A stretch of 64,000 nucleotides of DNA from Candidatus Woesearchaeota archaeon (GCA_016203395.1 JACQMV010000035.1:415-64414), one strand, 5' to 3'. Numbered from the stretch's first letter, positions 4,615-58,032 are shown. Made by a program: numbers and translations. The notes: generated from the letters alone by a model not told the origin.

Positions 4615-4752
4615 ACTCGTATTTTTGCAGCTACCAAAACCTGCTCTCAACTGCTATTATTTCTACAAATCATAAAAACGGCATGTTTTTTACGTTTTTG
4701 AGGCAGAATAATGCCAAAAGCTTAAATAATCCGCGCGACTAATCAGGTAATT

Positions 4753-5760: not shown

Positions 5761-7745
5761 TTTCCTCTGATTCTTAGATAATCAAGCTTGCTTCCCTGCC
5801 TTGCCACAACAACACCCACAGAGTCAAACTGAGTGTATGTTTTTTCAGACGGCGGCAAAAACTCCGCAACCTCTGCAGAATCTATAAACAGCTTGTAGCT
5901 GCCATCACCATACCTTGCCAATCCATACGTGTGCCAGTTCTCTAAAACACCAGAGCCAACATGATACCTGTATTGCCTAACATCTTTTCCTTCATCATCA
6001 TAGACATACCAGTCAATATTATAATTTGAGCTCTCGCCATACAGCCGGAATTCATAATGCGCTTTGTTGCCAGCATACAACAGTATAGAAACTGCATTAG
6101 GCCAATCACTCGCACTTACTACACTTGTTTCAATAACCAACCGTTCAGTAGAATTAATCTCCACCTTTTTGAAAACTGTTGCCCATGGCTCAAGCTCAGG
6201 GCTATAACCCTTTCCAATGCCTGAAATAACGCCATTGTCAAGAGCAGGCAACCGATAAGACTGTCCATCAGGACCTTGTATTGACCAGCCATCTAAAGTA
6301 TCAAACCCATCATAAAATACGTTCTTTCTCTTCTGCCCAAAATCAAACGTGCCACTCCTACGTTCTGTCTTGCCATCCCATGAGCCAGATAATTCAACAT
6401 TGTGTTCCCCTGACAAATCACAATCCTCAGCACAAACAATGCCGAAATTCTCATTTGCGCAGGCATTAAACATGCTGCCAATACCTGTTCCTGTATGAGA
6501 TTTTTTAACACCATCAATGAACAATTCCAGCTGTACATCACCTACTGGCACATCATTATTAGTATCAAAACACACAAGATAACCCCTAAAACCAGCAGGA
6601 CCGCCTTCAAAAAATCCCTTCACTCCCTCAAGAGCAAGATTCAGTTTAGTGCCTTTACCATTAATACTACTGAAATCAATCTCTTTCTCTGACTTTATGT
6701 TAGGTGCTACTGCAAGCCCAACAGAAATCTTTTCATTGCCATGCAATTTAGACAATTCACAATCTTTACAATCCAATTCTAAACTTATATCTTCACAAGC
6801 TTCGCGCTTGAGACCCCAAACGCGCTCAATGAACGTCCCATTAGCATAAACGTTAAACAAGTCACGACCTGCTTTTGCAGGATCTGCACTTAAACAAACA
6901 TAATACTTGCCAGTAGCTTCATTCTTTTTAAGTGCAGTAATTGATAGAGACACAGGCGCAATCTCTGTAATTTCCTCAATTTTACCAAAATCAACTAATA
7001 GACCATCATCAATCCTCTTGTCCTCACTAAGCTCAAGCCAGATATGCCATCTGCCATCATATCCCTTAAGAGGACATGCGTTATTACAATAAACAGAAGC
7101 ATCATACTGTGGGCAGTATACGTCTTTCATTCCGAGAGGATTTCCTGCCGGCTTTGCAAAGTTGTTATCCACATAAACATTAAACGACTTGTCCTCTGCA
7201 TTGATTGAAGTGTTAAAACAAAACCGGAATAAGGAATCATCACTACCAACAATCTTTTGCTTCATTACTTTATCCAACCTGAAAAACAATTTAGGAGATT
7301 CTGGAAGTGTTGGCACAGGTTCTGGCTGCGTTATGTTCTCTTTAACTGGAGTATCATTCACAACCACTGGCTTTTCAACAGATGGAGGAAGAACAGGGAG
7401 TTCAACAACAGGTTGCTGTGAGCTTTCAATACGCAAACACACGACTTCTTCAGATGCTTTATCAATAAGCATGACGACTTTTGCACTACCCTCTGCCACG
7501 TGAACAAACCAGTATTCTTTAAAAGGAAGAGAACGACTGCATAATTCATCTACAAAACCGGCTTTTTCTTTAAGTGCCTGCTCATCCCACAATGATGCCT
7601 GAACTGAAGCACCCGGATGCTCTTTCAAAAACTCTTTCACAGGAGCAAAACTCCGAATAAATTCCTCAGGGCTTGCAGAACACCCGATTAAAAACAAAAG
7701 CGCTAAAGCAGAAACACTTAACTTAAACCAAGAGCAAACCCTCAT
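5757..7745 (-). CDS. Large secreted lipoprotein (662 aa), possible C-terminal concanavalin/LamG-like domain
   Basis: Signal peptide with lipobox-like LFLIGCSAS. Pro-rich linker (PVVELPVLPPSVEKPVVVNDTPV). The domain call is tentative. Confidence 0.45.
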   Translation of the reverse strand: MRVCSWFKLSVSALALLFLIGCSASPEEFIRSFAPVKEFLKEHPGASVQASLWDEQALKEKAGFVDELCSRSLPFKEYWFVHVAEGSAKVVMLIDKASEEVVCLRIESSQQPVVELPVLPPSVEKPVVVNDTPVKENITQPEPVPTLPESPKLFFRLDKVMKQKIVGSDDSLFRFCFNTSINAEDKSFNVYVDNNFAKPAGNPLGMKDVYCPQYDASVYCNNACPLKGYDGRWHIWLELSEDKRIDDGLLVDFGKIEEITEIAPVSLSITALKKNEATGKYYVCLSADPAKAGRDLFNVYANGTFIERVWGLKREACEDISLELDCKDCELSKLHGNEKISVGLAVAPNIKSEKEIDFSSINGKGTKLNLALEGVKGFFEGGPAGFRGYLVCFDTNNDVPVGDVQLELFIDGVKKSHTGTGIGSMFNACANENFGIVCAEDCDLSGEHNVELSGSWDGKTERRSGTFDFGQKRKNVFYDGFDTLDGWSIQGPDGQSYRLPALDNGVISGIGKGYSPELEPWATVFKKVEINSTERLVIETSVVSASDWPNAVSILLYAGNKAHYEFRLYGESSNYNIDWYVYDDEGKDVRQYRYHVGSGVLENWHTYGLARYGDGSYKLFIDSAEVAEFLPPSEKTYTQFDSVGVVVARQGSKLDYLRIRGN

Positions 7746-7844
7746 TTATTCTTACGGAAGAAGCCACAATATATACGTGCTTAACATTAAATAAATATCA
7801 ATATATATGCGTCCAAAAAACCCTGCTAAAAAACATAATGGGCT

Positions 7845-8010
7845 GCATTATTTGTCCAGCAGCTCAAGTGCTTTGACTATGAACTTTAACGCAAGCCAGT
7901 GTGTTGCTTGCCATGAACAATGCATTTTGTTTGCATACTGTTGCACAACAGTTGTGCCATTGTTGCAACAGATTGCAAGCACAGGATTTACACTGCAACA
8001 ACCATCCTGG
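7845..8010 (+). repeat. Partial or degenerate copy of the dispersed intergenic repeat family (module 2-like)
   Basis: cagcagctcaagtgctttgactatgaactttaacgcaa and ttgttgcaacagattgcaagcacagg match the conserved cores tgctctgaYtRtgaactttaacgcaatta and ttgttgcaa..ttgcaaacac of the copies at 9030, 26155, 34330, 49320 and 61706. Confidence 0.4.
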
Positions 8011-8920
8011 AAAGAATTTCTTCTTTCATGCCCTGTTTTGCGAACTTTACAGGAATATCCTTGCAAAGCACCTCACTCATGTATCCCTGACAAAGCTGTT
8101 CAAGACCATCTAACTTAATATCATGGCTTTCCGGATCATGGTGCGTAATATACAAACTGCCAACATTTGCCTCTGCAGCAATATCACACACTCTCAAAAT
8201 ATTAGAATGACCCCAACCCTTCTTCGTCATATACTCCTCAGGATCATACTGGCCATCCATAACAAGAGCATCAACACCATTGATTATACCAATAAGCGTC
8301 CTGTCCTTTGGCCCAAAACTTCCAAGACACTCACCATCATGCTCATAATCGCCAGTATAAGCAACCCGGGTTCCATCATTCTGAATAAGATAGCCGAACA
8401 TGCCTTCAGGATGGCAGCTGTGAAAAAACGGCTGAACTGAGGTAAAACCATTTATTATTGGTTCCTCATTAAGATCGGTGAAAGTAATATTCGCACCCAT
8501 CTTATCCAATGCAACAGGAAAAAAGTCACGCCCCTGCTGATAAAGAAAGCCGCTTTTAGTGTAATTAACTTCATTACACTTGTTAGTGCATGGTTCCGTC
8601 TTATCCCACGTCCTTCCAAGAGCAATTCTCCTATGACCGCCATACACCCGCAACACATTACCGGGCTTATAGCACGGCTTGAAAAAAGGAAAACCATTAA
8701 TGTGATCCCAGTGAGTGTGCGAAATAAAAACATCTGCATCTGTCTTTCCCCTGATAAGCTCACTGCCAAGGACTCTCGCTCCAGAACCCATATCAAAAAT
8801 ATACAACCCATCAGAAGTTTCTACTGTAAGACAGGAAGTATCCCCTCCATACTGCACAGTGCCTTCCCCCGGTGTTGGTATGCTCCCTCTTGTTCCATAA
8901 AATGTTATTTTCATTTTCAT
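7988..8920 (-). CDS. Metallo-beta-lactamase-fold hydrolase
   Basis: HxHxDH motif ISHTHWDHINGFPFF. N-terminus MKMKITFYGTRGSIPTPG. The tracked ORF begins at 9058, but an internal ATG preceded by GGAGG is the likely start. Confidence 0.65.
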   Translation of the reverse strand: MKMKITFYGTRGSIPTPGEGTVQYGGDTSCLTVETSDGLYIFDMGSGARVLGSELIRGKTDADVFISHTHWDHINGFPFFKPCYKPGNVLRVYGGHRRIALGRTWDKTEPCTNKCNEVNYTKSGFLYQQGRDFFPVALDKMGANITFTDLNEEPIINGFTSVQPFFHSCHPEGMFGYLIQNDGTRVAYTGDYEHDGECLGSFGPKDRTLIGIINGVDALVMDGQYDPEEYMTKKGWGHSNILRVCDIAAEANVGSLYITHHDPESHDIKLDGLEQLCQGYMSEVLCKDIPVKFAKQGMKEEILSRMVVAV

Positions 8921-9029
8921 CGCCTCCATACAATACCTTAGTTCATGAAGAATAAGATACCTACCATCAGAAATTGCCTCAAACAAGAAAATAAACAAGC
9001 AATAATTATGAAACAGCACCCTATCACCC

Positions 9030-13610: not shown

Positions 13611-14669
13611 TTATATAATTACAGCAGAAGAATCTGATGTTCGTGTAAATATAGTTGATGGCTTATCCTTGAGAAAATCAAATGAGTATAGCCGAACAGT
13701 TTCCTCGCCACTTTTCAGGTCAGAGAGATAAGCATCAAGAAATTCCTGAACTAATTCATCCTGTGTTACTGGTTGCAATAACACAACCTGTTCCTCAAGC
13801 GGCAATTCATTTAGAAGTGATGGCTCTTCTTTCAACAGCGAATACACCAAATGACTTTTAGCCAATACTTTTCTTACTTCAGGAGAATTGACCTTCAAAT
13901 GATACTCAACACCATTCATTTTTGATGCATCAATGTTTAATTCTACAAAAGCAGCACCTTCCATACTTTTCAATCTGTTTTTTACTGCTTCATTGCTTAA
14001 CTTTACGAAATTTGCCGCATACAACTTGCTTAGCACTTTGTTCCTAGGAACTAAAGAGCCCTGAAATTCTGGAATAACCGGCTGGTTATGCGTTGCCATA
14101 AATAAACTATAAAATCCATTAAAGTGAGCTGTTTTACTGCCATTACATGAAATCTGATAAGATTTTGTTTCAAACTCCATCTCTAACAAATCAGGCCTTG
14201 CAAAGCCATCTATACCGCCAATTTGTGAATTAATTGTAGAAGCAGTAGTTAGCACTTCTAACATTAGTTTGTCATCCAAAATCATATACGGATTACGTTC
14301 AATATCCAAAATACGTCCAGACAAGTTCTTTATTTGCTGCACAGTCCCTTTTGAAGAATCCCAATTAATCCTGACACGGTAGCCCTGCTGCAATGGCGTT
14401 GTTTCCAATCTGCCAATCAAACAGTCGTTCTTAAGAACGCGAGCAATAATCCCTTTATTGCGTGAATAAAACTCGCGAAGTATCATCTGAAAATCAATGC
14501 CAGAAAACCTTATTGCGCAATCATAATCTGCATCAAGCTGGGATAGCGTTGCCAGAAGAAAAACCTTATCCTTAGCAACAAAACCACTAAAGTCAAGAGA
14601 TTGCTCACTGAAACCAGGCAATACTTGCGTAAGCATGTCAAATTCCTTTTGATTAATACTTACTTTCAT
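13611..14669 (-). CDS. Hypothetical protein (352 aa), last gene of the GHKL/ClpX-like operon
   Basis: ORF overlapping the 928-aa gene by 17 nt. No recognisable motifs. Confidence 0.45.
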   Translation of the reverse strand: MKVSINQKEFDMLTQVLPGFSEQSLDFSGFVAKDKVFLLATLSQLDADYDCAIRFSGIDFQMILREFYSRNKGIIARVLKNDCLIGRLETTPLQQGYRVRINWDSSKGTVQQIKNLSGRILDIERNPYMILDDKLMLEVLTTASTINSQIGGIDGFARPDLLEMEFETKSYQISCNGSKTAHFNGFYSLFMATHNQPVIPEFQGSLVPRNKVLSKLYAANFVKLSNEAVKNRLKSMEGAAFVELNIDASKMNGVEYHLKVNSPEVRKVLAKSHLVYSLLKEEPSLLNELPLEEQVVLLQPVTQDELVQEFLDAYLSDLKSGEETVRLYSFDFLKDKPSTIFTRTSDSSAVII

Positions 14670-17400
14670 CTGCTACCTCACGTTCATAAAATTCATACTT
14701 ATCAGATTCTTGTATTACCTTTTTAGCAACCACACTCAACGCTCTGCAAAGGTTTCCATGCGCAAGAGCTTTCTCCTCATTAATAAGTTCAAATATCGCA
14801 GGAGCAGAATAACTGCGTATGAGCTTTGCCCTTGTTTTGTAAAACAAGCTCTGAGTAAGTTCAGAATTAAGCTGCAAACCCTTGGCTTTACTGCCAAACA
14901 CTGCATTAAACAAAAACCTGCTTCTTGATGCCTCATCCATTACTTCAAGCCGTCTTACAAAAGCAGCATAATAACAATTTTCTACCAAAAACTCGGCCTG
15001 ATTTAGCGTTGCTGCAAAAGCAACCTCATCAGGATAAGCATTTCCAAGCCAAAAATCCAGTTCATTTCTTCTACCTTTTGATACAATCCTGCAAACAGCA
15101 CGCATTCTTTGAAAATCATCCAAGCCACTCAAGTAATTCTCCAACTTCAATTTGTTATTTTTGGAATAATAAAACAATGCAACAGCAGAAGGAGAGTTAT
15201 CACAAGCAAGCATGGCTCTTTCAAGCATTTCTGCATGCACTTCCAGTGCGTGATCACGTGATACGCAATCAGAAACAACGCCCTTGGCGTGGATTAACGG
15301 AATTAACGCATAAACCAGTTCTGGAATTTTTTTGTCGGCAACCAATACAAACTCAGAAGCATTCCTGCCAATACCAACGTGGAGGCCTTCATAATCCTGC
15401 TGAACTAATGTGTGTTTGTTATTAAAATGCATGCCGCACTCCTGACAATGGTTGAAATCAATCAGATTAAAACCAAAACCATGCATGTCACTCAATGCAA
15501 AACTCATCATTCTAACTAATGACTCCATTCTCGCCTTATTAGCTTCATTAATCGCATGCCTTTCATATACTCTTCTCTCAAAATAATTCCTGAGCATTCT
15601 ACTCACAGCAAAAGAATCTGATTTTTCCTGAGAATCAGCATCCTGCGTATGACGTGTTGCAGCATGCTTTACTGCATTAAATGAAGGCACTAAAACCTTT
15701 GTAGTAATAAAAGAATGACGCGCACTTTCTGACACTTTTTTGCTTGCAGATGCGCAATTATCAATCAAATAAGCTGAACCTTGCTTTATTGCATTACCTG
15801 CTGAACAAGACGCATCAAAAACCAAATTGTATGCACGACTAACTGCGCCTTTTACTCTCCTATAATTTTTCCTTGTAGAATCCTTCATTCTATTAATTGA
15901 TTTCTCATTCTTAGCAATAACTTCATTTCCAAAATCATAAGCAACATTTGTTGCCTTAGCAGCAACATAGCCAGTCAAACAAACACCGCCAATTGCTCCG
16001 CACGCAATTGCTCCTGTAGAAACAACATCAAGAATCACATCACCCACACTATATGCATTAACTGCCAATGCGCCTGCTCCAGCAATGTAAATTCCTGCAG
16101 CAGAAACAGTTTTTATTACCGGATTATTAATCCCTGAAAAAGGAGCGAGCAAAATATTAGCTCCTTTTTTTGCATGCTTTCCTCCAATGCACATGGCACG
16201 AGTGAGTGTGGCTTTTCTCTGCACATTACACAAGTAAGAATCATAATCCTTAATAGGAATATAACGCGATGGAGTGCAAAATATGTCAAAGAATACTCTT
16301 GTAAAGTCTATCTCAGAGAAATCAAGCACAAGCCCATCTCCTTCTTCAGGCAGTGTATTTTCTCTTGAAAAAAACAGTATCTTCGATCTCTGGTTAATAC
16401 TAAGAAAATCTGAGATATCTGCCAAAGAAAGTTTTCTGTTATAAACATCCTTAAAAACATCTGCTGTCACAACTGCGCTTTCAAGATCACCGAGCCGGTT
16501 ATTTCTTGCCCGGAGACCAATTACTTCCAATGGCAAATTAGACATAATGCCCTTTGCTAAAACCCCAAAGGGCTCATGAAACTCCTTATCATCAGGATGC
16601 TCAATAAACTTCTTTACAATCTCCAGATTCAACAAGTAAATGCCCTTTACTGCAGACTGTGTAAGATCCTGAACTGTTTTTTCTGATTCAAGAGCAGCAG
16701 TTGAAGGAACCATTGGAATATCCGGACTGTCAATAATAACATATTTTCCTGAACCAATAGTGCTTGTTGCACTATAAACAAGAACGTTGTTTCTGAGCAA
16801 CAACAGCTTACCTGATACTCCTTTTTGTTCTTCACAAAGCAAGCCAGCAACAGCTCTTGTATTACCTGCACTAAAATCAACTACACACCTTGATTTGATA
16901 TCAATATTAACTTTTTTCTTTCCAAGATATACTGGAACAGAACTGTATTTGCACCGTTCTATAATCTTGGCAACTGCGTTATCGTGAGACCCTTCTCGTT
17001 TCTTAACAACAACATGCATGCCGTTTTTTAAGGATGATTTCTCAAATGTCTGATGACCGAGAGCATCAATACGAAGCTGAACAGCACTGCCATTGTGAGC
17101 ACTATCAAGAATAATTTCCAACGGACTTATTGCAAATGCAGAATACACCAGTCCGGGAATGTTAGAACTGCCTGCTTGTGTGGTAAACGCCTGTTTGAGA
17201 GATTCTTCGCTAATACCCTCGCCATCTGAACGAACAGAAAATTCAGAAGCACTGCAATTAACTCTGACCTCGCCGGGTCTTGTCTGCATCACTAACTCAA
17301 CAAGAGCAGAAGCATACGCGCCCGGTTCCTTATCTGTGCACTGACCCAGCTTACGTGCCCTGCTAATAACATCCACTGTGTAAGGAAAATCTTTATTCAT
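14653..17400 (-). CDS. Large protein (about 915 aa) with a divergent N-terminal GHKL (Hsp90/MutL-like) ATPase-like domain and a Gly/Ala-rich hydrophobic segment; paralog of 17393..20038
   Basis: N-terminus MNKDFPYTVDV. N-box-like ALVELVMQT. G1-like SVRSDGEGISEESL. G2-like GLVYSAFAIS. A Gly/Ala-rich hydrophobic stretch GIYIAGAGALAVNAYSVGDVILDVVSTGAIACGAIGGVCLTGYVAAKA is present. Preferred start is ATG 17400, an 8-nt overlap with the upstream gene. Confidence 0.55.
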   Translation of the reverse strand: MNKDFPYTVDVISRARKLGQCTDKEPGAYASALVELVMQTRPGEVRVNCSASEFSVRSDGEGISEESLKQAFTTQAGSSNIPGLVYSAFAISPLEIILDSAHNGSAVQLRIDALGHQTFEKSSLKNGMHVVVKKREGSHDNAVAKIIERCKYSSVPVYLGKKKVNIDIKSRCVVDFSAGNTRAVAGLLCEEQKGVSGKLLLLRNNVLVYSATSTIGSGKYVIIDSPDIPMVPSTAALESEKTVQDLTQSAVKGIYLLNLEIVKKFIEHPDDKEFHEPFGVLAKGIMSNLPLEVIGLRARNNRLGDLESAVVTADVFKDVYNRKLSLADISDFLSINQRSKILFFSRENTLPEEGDGLVLDFSEIDFTRVFFDIFCTPSRYIPIKDYDSYLCNVQRKATLTRAMCIGGKHAKKGANILLAPFSGINNPVIKTVSAAGIYIAGAGALAVNAYSVGDVILDVVSTGAIACGAIGGVCLTGYVAAKATNVAYDFGNEVIAKNEKSINRMKDSTRKNYRRVKGAVSRAYNLVFDASCSAGNAIKQGSAYLIDNCASASKKVSESARHSFITTKVLVPSFNAVKHAATRHTQDADSQEKSDSFAVSRMLRNYFERRVYERHAINEANKARMESLVRMMSFALSDMHGFGFNLIDFNHCQECGMHFNNKHTLVQQDYEGLHVGIGRNASEFVLVADKKIPELVYALIPLIHAKGVVSDCVSRDHALEVHAEMLERAMLACDNSPSAVALFYYSKNNKLKLENYLSGLDDFQRMRAVCRIVSKGRRNELDFWLGNAYPDEVAFAATLNQAEFLVENCYYAAFVRRLEVMDEASRSRFLFNAVFGSKAKGLQLNSELTQSLFYKTRAKLIRSYSAPAIFELINEEKALAHGNLCRALSVVAKKVIQESDKYEFYEREVADESKY

Positions 17401-20038
17401 CAGAATCCTCCAAATAACTCTCCCATGATAGCGTTTCATGAATCAAAAAACGCGGTTGATCTTTAAGCAATTCCTTAACAACCCTATACTCATTATGTTC
17501 AGCCAATCTCTCGCGGATGAAACGCACTTTTGTTGATACACACGTCCCTTTTTTGTTTTCTGCTATACGCCTAACAACGCGGTCTGTTGCGTTCTCTAAA
17601 TCAATTCCAATAAAATTAACTGAATCGGCAATGTCGCGCATGGACTCTCTTGTCGGTTCATGGCAGAAATACAATTCAAAAGCAAGACCCATTCTTTTGT
17701 CACAATCCAGCAACCCGTATCTTGTCAAAAACGCACTCCTGTGATTTCGTTCAAGAAGCATAGCCATATTATTCGGAGTAATACTTGCGAGACGCTCAAC
17801 TTCTAAAGGAAATGCAGAAGCGAGCCATTCATCAATAACAGGAAAACGTTTACTAACATCATGCAAAAGCGAGTGGATAACTGCATTTTTTCTGGTATAA
17901 TCAAGCCATCTGATTTCTGTTTCTAAGCGAGAAAGGTCTTTCTTCGCATACCATTGCCTAAAGAATTCAGTAGGAGGGTAAACTAATGAATCAATACAAG
18001 TCCAAAGCACCCTTGAATTTATGTTTGTTGCATCTGCATAAGGAGATTTTGCACGTGTTGCTAATGCATGAGCAAGAGGAATTACTGTGTAAGCAAATGC
18101 GTTATCCTCCTTAATAGCGCTGACTAACTGCTGAAGTTCAGGGTTGTTACCATTCAAGCCAAAATGAGGATGCTCCGATCTACCGTCATTAAACATAGCC
18201 ATTAACTTCTTGCTCTTACTCAACACAAGATGAAACGGACATTCATAGCAATCATTTATTCTATCAACCCCTTTAGCGACAGTGTCCAAAACAAGTATTA
18301 AGTCAGCAAATTCTCTGGCTTTTTCTATCCTCTTCTTTTCTTCCTGTGCTTTTTCATCCTCTGCTGTTTTATTCAGCGAGTTTGAAAGCCACTCAAAAGG
18401 AGTTCTAAACATCTTACCAATATCAAACTTAGCTATTTTGACAGCACGATCTGCTGTACTTTCCAACAAAGGGGCGTATTTTTGCAGTTTTGAGCTACAA
18501 CTTTGTTTCAACCTGCGAATCCCCTCTATGTTCCTGTTAACAACGTAGTAAACGCCTGCTCCAGCAGCACCAGCACTTGCGGTAGTTGCTCCTGCAGCTG
18601 CAAGCAGCTTTAGTGCAGGTACAATATTCTGCCCCATATCAAACGTGCTGTATGCAAGCAAGCTAATACCCGAACCATAAGTCACGAGCGCAGTAGCACA
18701 AGCAGCTTTTTCACCAAGCAATTCTTCAACCTTTTTAAAAGGATGCATTAAGAAATTTGCTTGGGCTAAATACCTCACCCGAGTACGCTCCAAATACTCC
18801 TGCCTTCTCTGGCCAAAAGCAGCGTCTGAAATATAGGCATCATAATCCTGCACAGCACACCTCCAACTCGGGCTAGTAGTAGAAAAAATATAAGGATTAT
18901 CGCCTTTTAAAAGCAGGATAACAAATGGTTTTTTAGTGTCCTTTCTATGCGTATAAAAAATAATGCCTTTGTGTTGCTCCATCCTCTGCCTTTCTAAATC
19001 ATATATTGAATACACCCTGCCTTCATTATCGCGAAAAACCCCAGCAAGCAGTACGTGCCTCTTAATATCTGACAAACTGAGAGTGTTAGGATGGTCAAGC
19101 GATATAACACCAGCAACACTACGATACGCTTTGATACTTGATTCTGCCCTATCAAAAAAGAACCTTTTCGTAAATGTTCTTTCATTCACAAAAGGAGAAC
19201 GAATGTGCTCGTCAATAATCCCTTTTTCAAGAGCTTCCATTGCTTTGCCAACAACTGCTTTCAACAGGGTTACCTGCTTATCCTGCTCAAGCGAACGCCC
19301 GATACTAAACAATGGAAGTGTATCACAGTTTGCAATACCCCAAAAATCTTCATAACCCCATTTAAGATTCCCTATACTAATCCCTTTTCTAAGAACTCTA
19401 GTAGTGCCATAACAAGGATGGTCATAATGCGATTCTCTTGATTCACCCGTTCCTACAACACCTGTTATCCCTGAATCAGTAAATTCTTGCACAACACAAC
19501 AAGGAAATTTTAGTGGCTTGCTTAACTGTTTTTTCCCTTGAAATATCGGGGCAGTTGAATACAGACACTTTTTTCTAATACAAGGTGTTTCGTAATCAAA
19601 CAATGAATGAGTATTCTTTTCAACCATTACAAGTATTCCATTATCAAGAGAGCCAGTGCTGAAATTAGGATTGCCATTTTCATCAATTTCCAAACGCGTT
19701 TTTTCACCTCCCACAGAGGATTCAAGAAATATTCTTTTTGGACTGATTGCTAAAGCAGACATAAGCAAAACAAGAAGCCCTTCTGCTTTTCCAGCATCAA
19801 TAGCACTGCTGCCAGATGCGTAAATATCCTCAAGCTCTTTTCTTGTAAAACCGCCGGAAGGTGAGCGCACTCCAAAGGTGCTTGAAGTTCTACACAAGAC
19901 CATTCTTGAAGGATTGGTTTCTGCAACGAACCGAACAAGATTAACCGCATACTGCGCTTTATCATTTGTTTGATACATTGCCAGCTTTCTTACTTTGCTT
20001 GCCAAGTTCACCTTATACGGAAAATCACTGTCTGGCAT
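17393..20038 (-). CDS. Large protein (about 880 aa), paralog of 14653..17400, with a more degenerate GHKL-like N-domain and a Gly/Ala-rich segment
   Basis: It shares MPDSDFPYKVNL with the MNKDFPYTVDV of its neighbour. It has LVRFVAETNPS / RSPSGGFTRKEL / GLLVLLMSALAIS in positions equivalent to the N, G1 and G2 boxes. The Gly/Ala-rich stretch is LKLLAAAGATTASAGAAGAGVYYVV. Start chosen at ATG 20038 by paralogy, a 14-nt overlap. Confidence 0.5.
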   Translation of the reverse strand: MPDSDFPYKVNLASKVRKLAMYQTNDKAQYAVNLVRFVAETNPSRMVLCRTSSTFGVRSPSGGFTRKELEDIYASGSSAIDAGKAEGLLVLLMSALAISPKRIFLESSVGGEKTRLEIDENGNPNFSTGSLDNGILVMVEKNTHSLFDYETPCIRKKCLYSTAPIFQGKKQLSKPLKFPCCVVQEFTDSGITGVVGTGESRESHYDHPCYGTTRVLRKGISIGNLKWGYEDFWGIANCDTLPLFSIGRSLEQDKQVTLLKAVVGKAMEALEKGIIDEHIRSPFVNERTFTKRFFFDRAESSIKAYRSVAGVISLDHPNTLSLSDIKRHVLLAGVFRDNEGRVYSIYDLERQRMEQHKGIIFYTHRKDTKKPFVILLLKGDNPYIFSTTSPSWRCAVQDYDAYISDAAFGQRRQEYLERTRVRYLAQANFLMHPFKKVEELLGEKAACATALVTYGSGISLLAYSTFDMGQNIVPALKLLAAAGATTASAGAAGAGVYYVVNRNIEGIRRLKQSCSSKLQKYAPLLESTADRAVKIAKFDIGKMFRTPFEWLSNSLNKTAEDEKAQEEKKRIEKAREFADLILVLDTVAKGVDRINDCYECPFHLVLSKSKKLMAMFNDGRSEHPHFGLNGNNPELQQLVSAIKEDNAFAYTVIPLAHALATRAKSPYADATNINSRVLWTCIDSLVYPPTEFFRQWYAKKDLSRLETEIRWLDYTRKNAVIHSLLHDVSKRFPVIDEWLASAFPLEVERLASITPNNMAMLLERNHRSAFLTRYGLLDCDKRMGLAFELYFCHEPTRESMRDIADSVNFIGIDLENATDRVVRRIAENKKGTCVSTKVRFIRERLAEHNEYRVVKELLKDQPRFLIHETLSWESYLEDSDE

Positions 20039-22058
20039 TTTCAAGCTCCATAAATTTTTTGAAAAACCTTTTTTGAAACCTATGCGGATTGCCACTCAGG
20101 TAATATCTTGAAACTCCTTCAGTATACAACAAACTAATTGCGAAATAAGCAGCAAAGCATGGCTTTTTTGCATAATCATACTTTTCTGCAATAGCCATAA
20201 GCCGCCTTACTGTCGGACTGTTGAGGTTCACATAAACCTCTGTTTTACCTGACAATCCGAACTCAGACATGCTGATAAGATTCTGACCGCCAGAAGAGCC
20301 ATATCCTGCTTGCAGAAAACTGAAAGGAAAATCTTTTGTTTCGTTCAACACCTTTTCAGCCATAACCTCAACAATCTTTTTTCCAAGGTCATACTCCCTT
20401 ATTGCCCCTCTAATCAAATCACAGAACCTTTTTTCTTCAGCACTCAAATTCTGTGCTGTAACCTTTGACATAAACCTATACTGTTCTTCAACTTTCTTAA
20501 CCGTAACAATCTGGCTAAGAAATTCTTCAGGAAATGTCGAAGCAGAATCATACAATTTTGTTCTTATTATCGTTTTTCCTGCCTTCTGAAGCGCACTTGT
20601 AAGATCATTATGAGAAGCAGCAACATACACTACTTTGTTCTCCTTTGCCAGTCTCAAGACATCAGTAATAGACAAACACTCTCCCTGAGTTGTTTGAAAA
20701 ATACGGCGCTGAAGACAATCAGCAGGCAGGAATTGCCATACTTTCTTTTTCCGCACAATCTGAAAACTTCCTTTCTGAGTAAGCTTGCCTACCTGAATAT
20801 CGTAATTTTCCTCATACACTGTTGCAGTGCATTCCCGCAAAGGCAGAAAAGAACGAGCATGCTCACTCTGTGCTACTGCTTTAAGCTTGAGTTTTTTCAA
20901 ATGATTTGAAAGTGTTTCCAACAAAATGGAATACTCCTGAGACAATTCACCAATTTCTTTGTAAAAATCGTAATCTGTTGAATGCCTCTGACGTAGTTGT
21001 TGCACATTCATTGTTGTTATTTCCTCTAAACGCCTGTAAATCTGCTTTACAAGAAGCGGCTCCTGAGCACGAACAATTGCTAACGCATGCTCAAAATAAG
21101 AATCCCTCATTGCCTGCGTTCTGTCAATAGTGTGTTTAAACCTCGGAGATTCCAATAGCACAGACCACGAGTCGTTGGTTAAATTCCTGCCTTGTTCAAT
21201 AGAAATACCGTGCTCCTCAATCTGATAATCTGCAACAGCACGTTCATTATTACGCTGTTTTCTCAGTGCAATAACTCCTTTCAAATCACCGCTTGAAAAC
21301 TTAATCTTTGCAACAGCATCCTCAATATCAAAGGGCCGGTTGATTGTCATTTTATTGATGTACATAGGAATTTCAATATGATGTGCCCGTGAAGTAACCT
21401 CAGACATCATTCTGCTGATGAAATCAACTGCATGATGCTGCGCATCAAAATGCCTAACAAAGATTTCTCTTGTTCCACGATCTTTTGGCTTTGTTTTTGA
21501 CAAAGCCGGATCAGTAATAAGGTCATAAACATAATTCAGCGATTTAATTGAAAATATCTGCTGATTGAACTGGTCTTCACGCCCGGTAACATTCGTAAAC
21601 CGCGCCTGCCACCACTCAGCGTCTTTTGTTGATTCAATAGCATACACGTCAGGAAGCAGTTTGAAAACTGATTTCCCTCCAATACCAAATTTGCCTGCTT
21701 TTGTTACATCAAACTCCTTGGCTGAAAAATACATGTTAAAAAACCTACTGTCACGGTCCTCATGAGTCATGCCTATACCATAGTCCTCAGATACTATCAT
21801 AACTGTGAAAAGAGAATTGCCACAATTTGCTTTAAACTCATCAAGCATACCCAATCCGGCAAGCCGTGAGTCTCTTTCAGCATCTGGCTTTTGCTCATCT
21901 AAAAAATACCACCAGTCTATCTGAGGCGTTTCTGAATCACGATGATTCTGAACAAGCTCTACCCACGCCATTTCAGCCCTTGGAAACTGGTCAACAACCT
22001 GCTCAAGATTTCTTCTGGCATCCTCAAGAACAGGATCATCAAGAACAAACTGCGTCAT
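20025..22058 (-). CDS. GHKL-superfamily (Hsp90/MORC/MutL-like Bergerat fold) ATPase, 677 aa
   Basis: N-box ELVQNHRDS. G1 box EDYGIGMTHED. G2 box GKFGIGGKSVFK. The roughly 500-aa C-terminal region is unassigned. Confidence 0.65.
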   Translation of the reverse strand: MTQFVLDDPVLEDARRNLEQVVDQFPRAEMAWVELVQNHRDSETPQIDWWYFLDEQKPDAERDSRLAGLGMLDEFKANCGNSLFTVMIVSEDYGIGMTHEDRDSRFFNMYFSAKEFDVTKAGKFGIGGKSVFKLLPDVYAIESTKDAEWWQARFTNVTGREDQFNQQIFSIKSLNYVYDLITDPALSKTKPKDRGTREIFVRHFDAQHHAVDFISRMMSEVTSRAHHIEIPMYINKMTINRPFDIEDAVAKIKFSSGDLKGVIALRKQRNNERAVADYQIEEHGISIEQGRNLTNDSWSVLLESPRFKHTIDRTQAMRDSYFEHALAIVRAQEPLLVKQIYRRLEEITTMNVQQLRQRHSTDYDFYKEIGELSQEYSILLETLSNHLKKLKLKAVAQSEHARSFLPLRECTATVYEENYDIQVGKLTQKGSFQIVRKKKVWQFLPADCLQRRIFQTTQGECLSITDVLRLAKENKVVYVAASHNDLTSALQKAGKTIIRTKLYDSASTFPEEFLSQIVTVKKVEEQYRFMSKVTAQNLSAEEKRFCDLIRGAIREYDLGKKIVEVMAEKVLNETKDFPFSFLQAGYGSSGGQNLISMSEFGLSGKTEVYVNLNSPTVRRLMAIAEKYDYAKKPCFAAYFAISLLYTEGVSRYYLSGNPHRFQKRFFKKFMELENARQ

Positions 22059-23054: not shown

Positions 23055-24251
23055 TTATGGTGTATCTTCTTCTTTCGGTGAAGGGAGCTTTTTTACGTAT
23101 TCACTAAGCCCGGTTCCTTGCGAGTCAGCGGCAGCAAGATATCTCTGCACTGCAGAAGGATTGCCTTCTCTTAGTGACTGAAGTGTTGCAATAAGCGCCT
23201 GTTTCGCGCCTCCCTCATCAGCTACTAGTGCCTGGAGCGCGCTTTCAGCTGCCTGGTTGCTTGCATCAATAATGTCAGGAAGGAATACCTGAGAACTAAC
23301 TAATCCTTCATGATTCTTTGCAAGAAGTTCAAGTGACTGTCCGGATGCCTTCATTGTTGCATTCAAAACTTTATTTAGGTCAGTATACATTCCCGCAGTC
23401 TTCTCATATAGTTCTGCAACCTTTGCTAACTGAGTCATCTGTTTAAGCATTGGACCTTTTTTATCCAGTGTGCTTCCAACTTTAGCAACTTGATCAATAA
23501 GCATGGCTGCATAAAGCGCTAACTGTTGAGCTATTGCCCTGCTGCTTTCTATATCCTCAACAAGTTCATAAGTTCTTGATTTAGCAACAGAATTATTTAT
23601 TCTTGCTTCTTCAATGCTCTGCTCAAGCAAACTAATGGCTCTATGTAATTCTATGCCTTCTGTAGGCAATTCAGCAGCAGGAATGTTTTTATATTTTTTG
23701 AATTGCTCAGTTGCTAGCGCATATTGTCCATCAAGCTCTCTCCCATACTTTTCTATACGCTCTCTTGTTTTTGCAAGACCAACAAGTTCATCTTCTGCCT
23801 GGCTGATACTTGTTCTTAATTGTTTAAGCGTACTTAATATTCCTTCATCATTCTCAACATAGGTTCGTATAGTTGCAATGCGCTCTCTCGTTTTTGCAAT
23901 AAAACTTTCAAGAAATTCATTAACTTCCTGTCTTGCAAGATAACTGCCTAGCCAAGGAACTTTATGAACCAGAGCGTTGCCTGCTTCTTTTGCACTTTCC
24001 CATCTTTTTCCCTCTGAAAATATCCCTTTAACTGCAGGCAGAAACTCTTCGTGTTTCTTGACTGTAGCTGCGACCATGGTTCTGACCTCTTCCCATATCT
24101 TACCTGTTTCGCCCATAACTTTTTCTGCTTTTTTCCTTTTCTCAGCCCTTTCCAGTGACGCTTGTTTTGATTCTGCAATTAAATTAGTAAGTTCAGGTAG
24201 AGCAGCATTTGGCTCGGAAGTCATAAGTGATAATTTTCCTGAATTATTCAT
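23055..24251 (-). CDS. Alpha-helical, coiled-coil-rich hypothetical protein (398 aa)
   Basis: Highly charged heptad-like sequence with E/K/L/A-rich runs. The start overlaps the ClpX-like gene by 8 nt. Confidence 0.45.
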   Translation of the reverse strand: MNNSGKLSLMTSEPNAALPELTNLIAESKQASLERAEKRKKAEKVMGETGKIWEEVRTMVAATVKKHEEFLPAVKGIFSEGKRWESAKEAGNALVHKVPWLGSYLARQEVNEFLESFIAKTRERIATIRTYVENDEGILSTLKQLRTSISQAEDELVGLAKTRERIEKYGRELDGQYALATEQFKKYKNIPAAELPTEGIELHRAISLLEQSIEEARINNSVAKSRTYELVEDIESSRAIAQQLALYAAMLIDQVAKVGSTLDKKGPMLKQMTQLAKVAELYEKTAGMYTDLNKVLNATMKASGQSLELLAKNHEGLVSSQVFLPDIIDASNQAAESALQALVADEGGAKQALIATLQSLREGNPSAVQRYLAAADSQGTGLSEYVKKLPSPKEEDTP

Positions 24252-26043
24252 TTTTATTGCCTGCCTTTTGCTTTAGCTTTCGCTTAACATAGCTATTTAA
24301 ATAAGCATCAGGATTGTTTAAGAAATCTTTAGTAACTGTAAACGTATCTTGTTTTATAAGCTTTAAAGCATACGGAAGAGTGGCTGTTGCGCTTTCAAGC
24401 GCACTAATAAATGCCTGCGGCCTCAAAGCATCAAATTCTATTCCTTTAACATTAATCCTCAAAGCAATGTCTTCTTTAGTAAGATACTTTCTTGCAAATC
24501 CTCTAAAATAGTGCTGTATGAAAAAGCAATCACTCTCTGCTTTCGGCTCCTGCACAAAAGAAGGCGAGATTCTCACATTATTAACTCCTGTTAATCCAGG
24601 AAGACCGGTTCTTAAATGACAAAGAACGTCCTCAGTAACAGTCATTATTGACCTTGCACCAAGCCCAAGAGAGTGCGCTTTTTTGGCCATTGCTCTTAAG
24701 GCATCATCATCAAATTCTACACTAACACCTGTTGCAGAACGTATCAGATTCTGCTGTTGCTTCAAAAGAGAAATATCTGACTCAGTCATTATGCGCAAAA
24801 TGTCATTTTCTGTAAGATCATGAAATGGAGCAATATATGGAAGACGACCAACTAACTGGTGAAGGAAGCCATACTCGGTAAGGTCCTGTGAACTAACTTT
24901 TGTTAAAAGCCCATACTTTCTTGCACTAGCAACATCGTTTGTTTCTCTCTTAAACCCTACTGTCTGTTCTCCTAAACGTTTTTCAACAATGTCTTCAATA
25001 CCTTCAAAAGCACCACCTAAAACAAAAAGAATGTATTTTGTGGATATTTTTCTCTGATTGCCGAACATTGTTGTCAGTGGGTTATGATCAGGTAAAGCAT
25101 CAATCAAGCAGTTTTCAAGCATTCTCAAAAATGTTCCCTGAGTTTCTTTTGAAAACCAACCACCCACTCCTTCAGTGCCTTTTACAAGTTTGTCTGCCTC
25201 ATCAATAAAAATAACGCCATAAGGCACAAGAGAATGATCCTTTGACTGCTTGTATAATTCCCTTACTGCATCAGTAGCATCTTTGCCGTAAATTCCTGTT
25301 GGAGTAAACTGGGTTGCATCAACTGCAAGAAAAGGAAGACCTACTACTTTTGCAAGAGCACTGACAAGCGAAGTCTTACCAACACCAGTTGAGCCGATGC
25401 ACAAAACACCACCTTTGCGATAATCTGGAATTTCAGCTCCTTTAATTGCTTGCTGAACAGCACTTGCATGATAAAAGAATGCATTAGCCAATACCTGTTT
25501 AGCCCCATCCTGACCAATAATAGTTTTGTCAAGGGCGGCAATCATTTCCAAAGGCAAAGGGCAGTGTGTGAGAGATTTTGGCTGAGCAGATACTTTATGT
25601 TCGGCTTCAGAAACAGGAGATTCTGGCTGAAAAAAAGGAGAGTTCTCAAATATCTCTCTGAACAGGTCCTTAGGAAATAAGTCCTCAGGAGAACCACTTA
25701 ACTTTCTCATGTTTTTCAACACCTCTTTGAGCATTTGTTCCCTTTTACCTTCTAAAATCGGCCGCACCTTATCTGGAGGAGGTAATTTATTATCTACAAC
25801 AAGCTGATGAAGTTTAGAATACATTGTTGAACCGTCATCTTTTTTTGAAGGAGCATAGCCAAACCTTTGGTCATATCCGTCAACAAACGCGGTTATTCTT
25901 CCTTTCACAAATGGCTTTGCTGCCCTAGTTAAGAAATTTGTTGGCATGCTATCAATTTCATTCATAATTGCTTTTGCATACGCCCTTACTTTTTCCGTCT
26001 CTGATAACTTATCCCACGCAGGGTCCTTTTCACGGTCAGCCAT
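24244..26043 (-). CDS. ClpX/HslU-like AAA+ unfoldase ATPase (orphan: no Zn-binding N-domain, no adjacent peptidase)
   Basis: IIGQDGAKQVLANAFFYH resembles ClpX VIGQEQAKKVLAVAVYNH. Walker A GSTGVGKTSL. Pore-loop-like TGIYGKDA (ClpX GYVGEDV). Walker B VIFIDEADKL. There is an approximately 160-aa N-terminus and an approximately 100-aa C-terminal extension, both novel. Confidence 0.65.
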   Translation of the reverse strand: MADREKDPAWDKLSETEKVRAYAKAIMNEIDSMPTNFLTRAAKPFVKGRITAFVDGYDQRFGYAPSKKDDGSTMYSKLHQLVVDNKLPPPDKVRPILEGKREQMLKEVLKNMRKLSGSPEDLFPKDLFREIFENSPFFQPESPVSEAEHKVSAQPKSLTHCPLPLEMIAALDKTIIGQDGAKQVLANAFFYHASAVQQAIKGAEIPDYRKGGVLCIGSTGVGKTSLVSALAKVVGLPFLAVDATQFTPTGIYGKDATDAVRELYKQSKDHSLVPYGVIFIDEADKLVKGTEGVGGWFSKETQGTFLRMLENCLIDALPDHNPLTTMFGNQRKISTKYILFVLGGAFEGIEDIVEKRLGEQTVGFKRETNDVASARKYGLLTKVSSQDLTEYGFLHQLVGRLPYIAPFHDLTENDILRIMTESDISLLKQQQNLIRSATGVSVEFDDDALRAMAKKAHSLGLGARSIMTVTEDVLCHLRTGLPGLTGVNNVRISPSFVQEPKAESDCFFIQHYFRGFARKYLTKEDIALRINVKGIEFDALRPQAFISALESATATLPYALKLIKQDTFTVTKDFLNNPDAYLNSYVKRKLKQKAGNKNE

Positions 26044-26154
26044 TCAAAAGTTATATCTGGATAGTTTATAAACCTATCTTAAAAAACTCACTACCGAGTG
26101 AGCACACTCCTGCTAAAAATCATCTGAGCAAATAACATATCTGCCTTGCAGCCC

Positions 26155-26450
26155 GTGCTAATTCTTGTCTTAAATGATGTTATAGGTTATCAGCAGCCAT
26201 TGCTAATTCTTATCTTAAGAGGTTATAACTTATCAGCAATCTTTGTGCTATGATTGTGAACTTTAACGCAATTAGCCGTTTTATTGACAAGAGCAATACC
26301 ATTTGTTGCAAATGATTGCAAACACGGTGCAAGCACATGGTAAGAGCTAAGTATAGCAACAAAACAAGATACCTTCAAACTACTCATCAAGCCACAAGAG
26401 CTGCGAGCCAGATACTAATTTATACACCCGGAGTATTTTTAGCAGATTTT
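26155..26450 (+). repeat. Dispersed modular intergenic repeat, copy B (plus orientation; 5' module tandemly duplicated)
   Basis: ctaattcttgtcttaaatgatgttataggttatcagcagcc and ctaattcttatcttaagaggttataacttatcagcaatc are a tandem pair. Then tgctatgattgtgaactttaacgcaattagcc...ttgacaagagcaataccatttgttgcaaatgattgcaaacac...ggtaagagctaagtatagcaacaaaacaag...caagccacaagagctg...agtatttttagca. Confidence 0.7.
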
Positions 26451-26455
26451 AGTAA

Positions 26456-27364
26456 TCAATTATTGTGAATGGCTACGATATTAATATTATGCCAGTATTC
26501 GTAGCCGTTTTTGTTATCATACTTAAGCCCGAGCTTGCGTAAGTATGCCATCCATCTTTGATTGTTTAGAATATTATTAACTTTCAAAGGAACATTCTTA
26601 GAACAGAGCGAAACATGCGCATTTGCTTTTTCAAACAACTTAGGACATAATGAAGAAGCATTCACAGCCAAAACGCCCTTTTTGTTTAAATACTTCCGTC
26701 CTTCACTCAGCAGGTGCTCAAGCAAGCCAATTCCCTCATAAGCGTTATCATCAATGCTGTTAGGCCTTGGAACATAAGGAGGATTACATATCAACAAATC
26801 AAATTTCTGCCTGGAAATTATTTGCAAACCATCCCCAACAAGGAATTTTGCACGTTCGTCCTGTATATTATCCTGCGCGCAACGAATTGCATACACATTA
26901 AGATCATTTACGAGAAGTTCATTCATTTCTGGAAGCTTGTGAAGAACATATTTGCTTAAAAATCCAGAGCCGCAACCAATTTCACAAGCAACCCTGAAAT
27001 CCTGCCTATCACAAAATAACTGTCTAAGAGCATTTGCAAAAACCAGGGTATCAATAGAAGGAGACCATACTCCTCTATATGGGGCGCTCGTGTGAACGCT
27101 TATTCCGTCATATTCCATCCATTTTTTTGGAGAACTGAATAGCGAAAATAATGTATCGCGAATCCTTGGAGCCAATTGCGAAATCCGCCAGTTGTCTGTT
27201 ACAAGAACAGGATCATCAAACTCATACACCCATTCTCTCATACTATCAGGATAAGCATGCACTCTTTTGCCGTCTTCCCTGTCCTTGCCCATTATTGATG
27301 CGAGCTCATCGCCATTTGCAAGAATTGCCTGTCTGGTGATAGCGGTATTGAATTGGGTAATCAT
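26456..27364 (-). CDS. NPPY-motif amino-group methyltransferase (HemK/PrmC-like or N6-adenine-like), last gene of the NAD operon
   Basis: Motif I ACEIGCGSGFLS. Motif IV DLLICNPPYVP. The roughly 130-aa N-terminal region is unassigned. 4-nt overlap with the NadK-like gene. Confidence 0.6.
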   Translation of the reverse strand: MITQFNTAITRQAILANGDELASIMGKDREDGKRVHAYPDSMREWVYEFDDPVLVTDNWRISQLAPRIRDTLFSLFSSPKKWMEYDGISVHTSAPYRGVWSPSIDTLVFANALRQLFCDRQDFRVACEIGCGSGFLSKYVLHKLPEMNELLVNDLNVYAIRCAQDNIQDERAKFLVGDGLQIISRQKFDLLICNPPYVPRPNSIDDNAYEGIGLLEHLLSEGRKYLNKKGVLAVNASSLCPKLFEKANAHVSLCSKNVPLKVNNILNNQRWMAYLRKLGLKYDNKNGYEYWHNINIVAIHNN

Positions 27365-32578: not shown

Positions 32579-32639
32579 CTAAAAAAATGTACATAATGTA
32601 TTGAAAAGATACATATTATAAGCACATAATACTGGTGAC

Positions 32640-37231: not shown

Positions 37232-37247
37232 CGGAGGACTGAGAAAA

Positions 37248-56733: not shown

Positions 56734-56734
56734 T

Positions 56735-58030: not shown

Positions 58031-58032
58031 GT

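Follow-up and report, generated by a model that had tools for sequence, protein, structure and literature searches.

The described proteins that come closest to those considered here belong to the Hsp90 family and its outliers. HtpG has been reported absent from Archaea, and the same survey described 'HSP90-like' proteins, far longer than HtpG, in Archaea and Bacteria that can be aligned with HtpG and are without the marker residues, for example the 982 amino acid (aa) Methanosarcina mazei protein NP_634445.1 (Chen et al. 2006, PMC1525184). Hsp90 itself has been viewed as a late bacterial invention that reached archaea by horizontal transfer (Rebeaud et al. 2021, PMC8166112), and sacsin is built of Hsp90-like ATPase modules (PMC3710099). 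Here we consider two adjacent genes, A and B, on a 64,000-nucleotide stretch of DNA from a Candidatus (Ca.) Woesearchaeota archaeon (GCA_016203395.1, JACQMV010000035.1:415-64414; this whole stretch is the window in what follows). Their products have an Hsp90-like fold with the ATP-binding motifs lost, each carries a Gly/Ala-rich hydrophobic insert, and directly upstream of them lies a third gene of the same fold in which the motifs are intact. The three genes are as follows.

14653..17400, minus strand: paralog A, 915 aa, start MNKDFPY (open reading frame and gene calls, two other assemblies)
17393..20038, minus strand: paralog B, 881 aa, start MPDSDFPY (open reading frame and gene calls, two other assemblies)
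20025..22058, minus strand: short Hsp90-like protein of 677 aa, ATP-binding motifs intact, directly upstream of B

In A, dead Hsp90-like N-terminal (N) and middle (M) domains are followed by a helical insert with two Gly/Ala-rich hydrophobic helices and then by a helical C-terminal region. The architecture of B, which lies directly upstream of A on the same minus strand, is that of A, and its ATP-binding boxes are degenerate to the same degree. At NCBI the two are hypothetical proteins (A is HY486_02485 and B is HY486_02490) of a Ca. Woesearchaeota genome bin, placed among the DPANN archaea; the host is a tiny groundwater archaeon that was also assembled from the sequencing runs SRR12113383 and SRR12113385. 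An assembly artefact as origin of the operon is ruled out, because these two independent assemblies reproduce it almost exactly, with 2 mismatches in 12,433 bases for SRR12113385 and 10 in 12,433 for SRR12113383, eight of the ten falling within the last 12 bases at a contig end. By BLASTP A and B align over ~900 columns, nearly their full length, at 24% identity (E=5e-39), and they are full-length paralogs. A preliminary description of this DNA had put two adjacent paralogous genes here, which is confirmed, its end coordinate of 20038 being the true start of B, and the reservation attached to it, that the similarity might be limited to a few N-terminal residues, does not hold. Neither protein has a match in Pfam at E<=1, in NCBIfam at E<=0.01 or in PADLOC.

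The part of each protein to which a fold can be assigned is the N-terminal one.

16366..17400, minus strand: residues 1-345 of A, Hsp90-like N (Bergerat) and middle region, motifs lost
18944..20038, minus strand: residues 1-365 of B, Hsp90-like N and middle region, motifs lost

A long family with the full architecture in common, consisting of A, B and the relatives P0003, P0004, P0005, P0007 and P0008, gave a profile that finds the TRAP1 N-domain at E=1.3e-10 and the Grp94 middle domain at E=7e-8 in the PDB, Hsp82 and HtpG scoring weaker; the middle-domain matches, over profile positions 219-340, are to Grp94, TRAP1, HtpG and Hsp82. The catalytic loop of the middle domain is a hallmark of Hsp90. 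In the profile alignment the family motif D-s-D-x-l-n-L-S-R-n-e stands in register with TRAP1 DSEDIPLNLSRE, and the wider family stretch '…DsDklnlvLSRneiv…' with 'DSEDIPLNLSRELL', the catalytic loop of TRAP1, while 'YssvPlyLNkkkvN' is in register with TRAP1 'FVSFPLYLNGRRMN', the strand at the end of the N-domain (Y-s-x-x-P-l-y-L-N-G).

The same fold emerges when A is modelled with AlphaFold2 from an alignment of 19 sequences. Over residues 20-340 the means of the predicted local distance difference test (pLDDT) in 10-residue blocks are mostly 72-94, with two at 61, and beyond these residues confidence is poor save in block 731-800. When the model was compared with the PDB by Foldseek, each of the top 50 matches was an Hsp90-family chain (TRAP1, Hsc82, Hsp90, Grp94 or HtpG), the best being 5tvw_A at E=8.3e-14, with 420-546 aligned columns across the top matches. 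Model and matches together place in A the Bergerat alpha/beta sandwich N-domain, the fold of the GHKL superfamily, and one relative, P0004 (Ca. Pacearchaeota genome), scores 29.8 bits with Pfam HATPase_c, above the cut-off of 26.4. The 'degenerate GHKL N-domains' of the preliminary description are therefore correct by profile and by structure comparison, and the Bergerat domain stands; the generic GHKL label is too broad, since profile and Foldseek both find an N-domain followed by an Hsp90-type middle domain in the long family. The N-terminal third of A, and by homology that of B, is an Hsp90-type N plus M module, and we are confident that A and B are members of a very divergent and unnamed branch of the Hsp90 family.

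The residues with which such a module binds ATP are a separate matter. With the register taken from hhalign of the long against the intact short family, plus alignments, the motifs read as below.

N-box (E-x-x-x-N-x-x-D): ELVQNHRD in the 677-aa protein, ALVELVMQ in A, NLVRFVAE in B
G1 (D-x-G-x-G): DYGIG in the 677-aa protein, SDGEG in A, SPSGG in B
G2 (G-x-x-G-x-G): GKFGIG in the 677-aa protein, GSSNIP in A, no Gly-rich box in B
GT: RGT in the 677-aa protein, GM in A, GI in B
Catalytic loop: Arg present in the 677-aa protein; VPSTAAL, no Arg, in A; FSIGRSL, Arg displaced by one residue, in B

Set against TRAP1 DSEDIPLNLSRELL, the equivalent of the catalytic loop is DSPDIPMVPSTAAL in A and CDTLPLFSIGRSL in B, and so the catalytic Arg of the middle domain is lost in A and its status in B, where an Arg is shifted by one residue, is uncertain. 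An NLSRN[D/E] loop in register with TRAP1 NLSRE is kept in P0005, P0007 and P0008, and in the proteins of 602 aa and 609 aa at the sister loci L003 and L005. In the alignment the Mg-binding Asn and the G2 box are missing from all long homologs, which points to an old and stable state and to no recent decay. Both A and B are predicted pseudo-ATPases, canonical ATP binding having been lost. It had been suggested that the boxes were degenerate in one copy and that this copy was the pseudo-ATPase partner of an active one. The degeneration is in both copies, and what survives of the suggestion is the partnership, which is the best reading of the locus provided that the active partner is neither A nor B and is found in the third gene, that of the 677-aa protein at 20025-22058.

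In this 677-aa protein the motif ELVQNHRD supplies the catalytic Glu, the Mg-binding Asn and the Asp, EDYGIGMT the DxGxG box and GKFGIGG the GxxGxG box, and RGT and the catalytic-loop Arg are also in place. The profile of its family finds the Hsp90 N-domain at E=4.2e-14. Its AlphaFold2 model (pLDDT 68.8, predicted template modelling score 0.66) again has only Hsp90-family chains among its top 50 Foldseek matches, mostly full-length, with a best E=1.5e-14 over ~780 columns, and hhalign relates the long family to the short intact family with 99.8% probability (E=6.7e-28, 353 columns). The best Pfam and NCBIfam matches of the 677-aa protein and of its sister-locus orthologs are to HATPase_c_3 (MORC-type) and to sacsin (PF25794, NF047352), all of them sub-threshold; against the sacsin-like models the 677-aa protein reaches 14.8 bits vs 32.8 for PF25794 and 19.9 vs 50 for NF047352, falling short of both, and the sub-threshold figures also include one of 18.5 bits vs a cut-off of 25. 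Going by its motifs, the 677-aa protein is the likely catalytic partner of A and B.

The family is a very rare one. Word-indexed homolog searches, whether with a single protein, a 2-sequence profile or a 7-sequence profile, returned the query itself only, and an exhaustive hidden Markov model (HMM) search of 1.84 billion cluster representatives returned 16 relatives at E<=0.001. With the short-GHKL alignment as query, only the known Pacearchaeota contig was found among GTDB genomes, together with one new metagenome locus, and IMG/VR held no relatives. A plasmid or phage origin is rejected, tblastn of plasmid and phage collections having also come back without relatives.

The relatives that exist show a conserved order. 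An intact gene directly precedes a dead one in six independent loci, namely the window, Pacearchaeota L003, L005/L007, L010, L011 and L012, four of which are AT-rich (DPANN-type) and two bacterial. At the three AT-rich sister loci (Pacearchaeota L003, L005/L007 from ENA and L010 from JGI) a short intact GHKL gene is followed by one or two long dead paralogs, and homologs of the 332-aa and 352-aa proteins that are encoded beside A, B and the 677-aa protein are also carried. The bacterial pairs are built differently in length and domains.

L011 (bacterial, GC 72%): 532-aa intact GHKL protein, then the 1445-aa P0014
L012 (bacterial, GC 51%, GCA_024231495.1), 4533-8998: 961-aa GHKL protein fused to a transglutaminase-like domain, then the 527-aa P0017

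The case for the dead paralog working with the active one rests chiefly on these six independent occurrences of an intact and a dead gene side by side.

Some further observations on the relatives may be recorded. The neighbours of the L012 pair are a Ser/Thr kinase, two unknown genes and a D12-class DNA methyltransferase. P0006 (590 aa, from a Logan contig) has GHKL motifs that are fully intact and ends in 'VGHELAHDPEGHH', which resembles the HExxH motif of zinc-metallopeptidases; going by that resemblance, P0006 would join an Hsp90-like ATPase to a possible protease. At 1704-2111 of L003 (minus strand) there is a gene for an HSP20 small heat-shock protein, a few genes upstream of the Hsp90-like cluster and on the opposite strand.

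Between the middle domain and the helical C-terminal region A and B each have an insert of ~200-300 aa, and the Gly/Ala-rich strings quoted from it in the preliminary description are present verbatim in both proteins, at the following positions.

15952..16119, minus strand: residues 428-483 of A, two uncharged Gly/Ala-rich hydrophobic helices with the acidic loop NAYSVGDVILD between them
18539..18706, minus strand: residues 445-500 of B, two uncharged Gly/Ala-rich hydrophobic helices with the loop DMGQNIVPALK between them

In the best 50-aa window the fraction of Gly plus Ala (G+A) is 0.44 in A and 0.42 in B, vs 0.16 and 0.14 overall, and this was reached in 0 of 500 shuffles. In each of the nine AT-rich long homologs the most hydrophobic stretch is an uncharged run at a relative position of ~0.5-0.7, amid a region that is otherwise rich in Lys, Arg and Glu; this run is 14-28 residues long, and 19-28 in all but one of the homologs. 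Eight of the nine went into the shuffling test, and in seven of these G+A of 0.42-0.50 was matched by 0 of 500 shuffles, the eighth having 0.30 (23 of 500). No such Gly/Ala-rich segment is found by hydropathy and G+A windows in the short intact proteins or in the bacterial dead paralogs. Judged by this distribution, the insert is a conserved and lineage-specific acquisition of the AT-rich (DPANN-type) long homologs. That the segments might be unconserved low-complexity linkers had been allowed for from the start; they are no throw-away linkers, because position and character are conserved in homologs below 20% identity.

The name 'glycine-zipper' given earlier to these elements has to be withdrawn. 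Small residues at i,i+4 give z=-1.9 in A and z=-0.5 in B, and pooled over 8 homologs 83 are observed where 82.6 are expected (z=+0.1), so that a glycine zipper with GxxxG periodicity is rejected, the small-xxx-small spacing being no commoner than composition predicts. The upstream flank is net basic in 8 of 8 homologs checked, the downstream flank is basic in 6 of 8 and about neutral in the other 2, and the loop between the helices is acidic or neutral; in A and B there are 4-6 Lys/Arg in the flanks and 0-1 in the loop. Such a pattern fits, and is no proof of, hairpin or monotopic insertion from the cytoplasmic face, by which the N-M module and the C-terminal region would both be inside the cell. 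Membrane insertion, as first put forward, is plausible, and the support it draws from hydropathy is marginal. Nor is the combination of GHKL with such segments unusual in itself, as had been claimed: histidine kinases have both a GHKL domain and membrane segments. The unusual thing is to find a hydrophobic insert mid-chain in a protein with an Hsp90-type N-M module.

The C-terminal half of the long proteins is less well defined, one small part of it being confidently modelled in A.

15001..15192, minus strand: residues 737-800 of A, small helical module, pLDDT 70-87, the only confidently modelled C-terminal part

Long-family C-termini have an 'L-N-x-x-x-P' motif, then '(I/M)-P' and then a helical module of ~75 aa (…WL..NY..L[V/I]EE[V/I]G), and residues 737-800 of A are in register with the C-terminal module common to the sister-locus long paralogs and to stand-alone proteins. 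An HMM of the ~75-aa module found no copy in the six-frame translation of the 64-kb window, A and B included. At the sister loci a module of ~55-75 aa (…WL..NY..LVEEVG…) ends the long dead paralogs and several stand-alone proteins (59-417 aa) of the same cluster, and occurs at these positions.

L003, 7038-8147: C-terminal module
L005, 390-2836, 4250-4429 and 8960-10000: C-terminal module

It behaves there as if it were a shared docking module; a PDB profile search with the sister-locus family that shares the module with the long paralogs was empty. By eye L-N-x-x-x-P recalls the 'E-I-N-P-x-H' segment of Hsp90. AlphaFold2 confidence is low in the C-terminal region, the 677-aa model is aligned by Foldseek along full-length Hsp90, and homology of the A and B C-termini to the Hsp90 dimerisation domain is at most putative.

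A, B and the 677-aa gene are part of a longer operon on the minus strand, the other members of which are listed here.

24244..26043, minus strand: ClpX homolog (AAA+ unfoldase), 599 aa, first operon gene, its stop overlapping the start of the next gene
23055..24251, minus strand: coiled-coil-like protein, 398 aa, weak coiled-coil family matches and weak similarity to a 361-aa protein of L003
22039..23037, minus strand: accessory protein, 332 aa, conserved, no known domain; homologs of 378 aa in L003 (E=5e-7), 451 aa in L007 and 367 aa in L010
13611..14669, minus strand: accessory protein, 352 aa, conserved, last operon gene; homologs of 443 aa in L003 (E=7e-11) and 459 aa in L005/L007

From 26043 down to 13611 the order is ClpX homolog, 398 aa, 332 aa, 677 aa, B, A and 352 aa, with stops and starts that overlap (by 8-20 bases) or nearly abut, and from this arrangement A and B are predicted to be translationally coupled to the upstream 677-aa gene. 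The 332-aa protein has no match in Pfam, NCBIfam or PADLOC, and the 352-aa protein none in Pfam, nor in the PDB when its family profile is used. The ClpX assignment is solid: residues 152-497 match ClpX chain 9ndj_F in the PDB at E=2e-49, the NCBIfam ClpX match is at E=1.4e-67 (under the cut-off), and an aromatic pore loop GIYG is present, as is 'VGF' at the position of the ClpP-docking IGF loop. A different N-terminal region of ~150 aa replaces the zinc-binding N-domain, there is a C-terminal extension of ~100 aa, and no ClpP gene is visible within the 64-kb window. Upstream of the ClpX-like gene, in an intergenic region of 412 bp, two imperfect direct repeats interleave at a period of ~44-45 nt (26148-26245; units of 26-27 nt with 78-88% identity, 105-200 nt before the start codon), and these may be regulator-binding sites.

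Taking these features together we lean, on balance, towards the view that A and B are non-catalytic, probably membrane-associated partner subunits of an Hsp90-like ATPase machine. The dead long paralogs would pair with the active short protein in a heteromer, as Hsp90 protomers pair with each other, and would serve it as scaffold and anchor, their hydrophobic hairpin dipping into the cytoplasmic membrane or spanning it, its two flanks staying on the inner side. Clamping of the active subunit, driven by ATP, could then act on clients at the membrane, and the AAA+ unfoldase could feed or extract substrates. What the sequences and models show is the homology, the fold, the loss of motifs, the conserved insert and the conserved pairing of an active with a dead gene; heteromer formation, membrane association and a chaperone-like function are inferred, and a membrane-chaperone function for the complex as a whole we regard as rather doubtful.

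Several findings weigh against the membrane-associated partner scheme. The curated Pfam HSP90 and NCBIfam HtpG models match none of A, B and the 677-aa protein, and a profile around the L-N-x-x-x-P region found no Hsp90 C-terminal domain in the PDB. Hessa sums over 19 residues are marginal, at +2.8 and +4.7 in A and +3.4 and +4.4 in B, and over the homologs they run from +0.4 to +4.7 in eight, with +6.8 in the ninth; Kyte-Doolittle values are 1.5-1.9 in A and 1.3 in B, which never reaches 1.5. The helices that AlphaFold2 draws in the insert of A (386-421, 437-460, 467-483, 488-537 and 592-641) have pLDDT <50 throughout. The number of hydrophobic helices varies, being two in A, B and L10_1018 (with an acidic or neutral loop) and a single run of 21-28 residues in the other homologs, and a uniform transmembrane topology is not obvious. 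As to the unfoldase, the L007 cluster has an AAA+ ATPase, and also encodes a protein of 372 aa that matches a coiled-coil family weakly and below threshold; this AAA+ is a classical AAA and no ClpX ortholog, and no AAA+ was seen in the L003 or L010 clusters, so that the AAA+ link to the Hsp90-like cluster may be loose. Finally the context of L012 looks more like that of a signalling or conflict module than of a housekeeping chaperone.

Given the hydropathy, it has to be asked whether the proteins are simply soluble, with the Gly/Ala helices acting as buried packing, oligomerisation or client-binding surfaces, or as flexible hydrophobic linkers in a long helical stalk. Hydrophobicity, marginal in A and in B short of the thresholds commonly set for transmembrane helices, would agree with this, as would an Eisenberg mean of 0.54-0.65 for the segments of A and B, the presence of one or two helices depending on the homolog, and the small residues themselves, which favour tight helix-helix packing. 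Quite how a soluble protein would come to keep uncharged runs of 19-28 residues across <20% identity, in sequences otherwise rich in Lys, Arg and Glu, is harder to see; the basic flanks and acidic loop agree with the positive-inside rule, and in some homologs clear transmembrane values are reached (Hessa +0.4 and Kyte-Doolittle 2.37 in L5_876, +1.8 and 2.11 in P0008). We regard solubility as improbable, though of the alternatives it is the one that fares best.

Somewhat less probable still is a biological-conflict or signalling system, for instance one of anti-virus defence, in which the active GHKL protein and a dead paralog would form a sensor or switch, the AAA+ would be a regulator and the hydrophobic insert would be an effector element that disrupts or senses membranes. 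The sub-threshold HATPase_c_3 and sacsin-type GHKL models that are the best Pfam and NCBIfam matches of the 677-aa protein point this way, and so do the great rarity and fast evolution of the family (16 relatives among 1.84 billion representatives) and the bacterial relative L012, an active GHKL-transglutaminase-like fusion beside a Ser/Thr kinase and a D12 methyltransferase. A methyltransferase adjoining the operon matches PADLOC mad2 at E=1.2e-15, but the match falls in the generic MTS-type methyltransferase domain. PADLOC matches none of A, B and the 677-, 352- and 332-aa proteins, and gives weak generic matches only for the coiled-coil protein and the AAA+; Pfam and NCBIfam find no nuclease, protease or other effector domain in the operon. 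Its flanks are housekeeping genes (thioredoxin reductase, ribulose-phosphate epimerase and NAD biosynthesis), its GC matches the surroundings, and relatives are absent from IMG/VR and from the phage and plasmid collections.

A bolder extension of the partner-subunit scheme, to which we give little credence, takes the operon for a mechanochemical membrane machine on an Hsp90 clamp that would remodel, tether or fuse membranes. Driven by ATP, the active short subunit would close on the dead long ones and helical stalks would pass the motion to membrane-inserted Gly/Ala-rich tips, possibly where an ultra-small DPANN cell touches its host, and the ClpX-like unfoldase would recycle the assembly; the likeness to dynamin-like or atlastin-type proteins would be one of design only, an analogy. 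Functionless decay, with A and B as eroding copies of the 677-aa gene, might be suggested by the loss of all ATP-binding motifs and the very high sequence divergence, and can be set aside as most improbable. The frames of A and B, of 915 and 881 codons, are open, unbroken and coupled to the neighbours through overlapping stops and starts; six loci, ranging from high-GC bacteria to DPANN archaea, keep a dead paralog beside an active gene; and the N-M fold is predicted with confidence and the insert is conserved.

Elsewhere in the window other genes were noted. Directly upstream of the operon, at 26456-34322, the MTS-type methyltransferase with the mad2-like match is followed by an NAD-biosynthesis block, consisting of a weak NAD kinase-like protein, quinolinate synthase NadA, nicotinate phosphoribosyltransferase and glutamine-dependent NAD synthase. 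At 36470-37231 (plus strand) is a gene for a 253-aa protein with a Ser/Thr protein kinase domain, similar to the MADS6 defence kinase at E=6e-30, far under the cut-off; the plus-strand gene run around it (35925-39972) has a GC of 0.42-0.43, slightly above the rest of the window, and the genes at 37248-38216 and 38213-39076 had no match in an NCBIfam scan, the only scan made of them. At 55369-60011 (minus strand) a 431-aa E1-like ThiF/MoeB adenylyltransferase, with the domain in its C-terminal half, has co-oriented flanking genes, one of which, of 454 aa, had no match in a Pfam scan, and the cluster may be one for ubiquitin-like or sulfur-carrier conjugation. Rfam has no family match in the window.

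To return to A and B as pseudo-ATPase partners, the operon of this DPANN archaeon holds, besides a ClpX homolog, three genes of Hsp90 fold, one apparently active and two dead and bearing a hydrophobic insert. For ~4.5 kb annotated as 'hypothetical protein' in these genomes a fold can now be assigned, and partners named that can be tested. We rate the locus as a divergent Hsp90-like branch that has escaped annotation, with a putatively obligate pseudo-ATPase partner and with a hydrophobic insert specific to its lineage. The literature searched gave nothing relevant on HtpG or Hsp90-like proteins in Woesearchaeota or DPANN or with transmembrane segments, and held no description of the operon, the active/dead pair or the hydrophobic insert. 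If confirmed, the locus would add an unannotated branch to the Hsp90/sacsin lineage and a natural obligate active/pseudo-ATPase pair of Hsp90 type, possibly the first membrane-tethered Hsp90-like machine; on the bolder reading, to which little credence is given, the intact/dead pair in bacteria and archaea may be an unnamed Hsp90 sister family, bearing on the origin of Hsp90 and of sacsin.

Compared with known systems, the long HSP90-like proteins of Chen et al. are described in terms that fit the long dead paralogs, and judged by that description only they may be related to A and B, although no operon partner, pseudo-ATPase status or hydrophobic insert is described for them (PMC1525184). The sacsin repeating region, bacterial sacsin-like GHKL proteins (PF25794, NF047352) and MORC HATPase_c_3 are alike in being the best curated matches of the 677-aa protein, and unlike in that all of these matches are below the curated cut-offs, that A and B have none, and that no HEPN, DnaJ or S5-type extension was found. 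In active/inactive clamp pairs, such as TRAP1 with its asymmetric hydrolysis and the MutL-alpha heterodimers, one protomer is catalytic and one structural or regulatory, which may serve as an analogy only, the partners here differing by 200-300 residues in length. It is the Hsp90 family (HtpG, TRAP1, Grp94 and cytosolic Hsp90) that comes nearest. The N-terminal Bergerat fold with a middle domain, where the best profile and structural matches lie, the catalytic-loop signature (…D-S-x-D-l-p-L-N-L-S-R-E…) and end-of-N-domain strand of the long family, and the 677-aa protein, in which every ATP-binding residue is kept and which can be aligned along full-length Hsp90, are common ground. In contrast A and B are without the catalytic Glu, the Mg-binding Asn, the adenine-binding Asp and the Gly-rich lid boxes, and have no MEEVD-type tail and no detectable sequence similarity to the dimerisation domain at their C-terminus; they carry an insert of 200-300 aa, helical at low confidence, with Gly/Ala-rich hydrophobic helices, and their host is archaeal, HtpG being reported absent there (PMC1525184). 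In the strict sense A and B are thus no members of the Hsp90 family, since the ATP-binding motifs are lost, the curated models do not match and the C-terminal domain has so far not been recognised, and partner of an Hsp90 clamp would be the best functional analogy for them.

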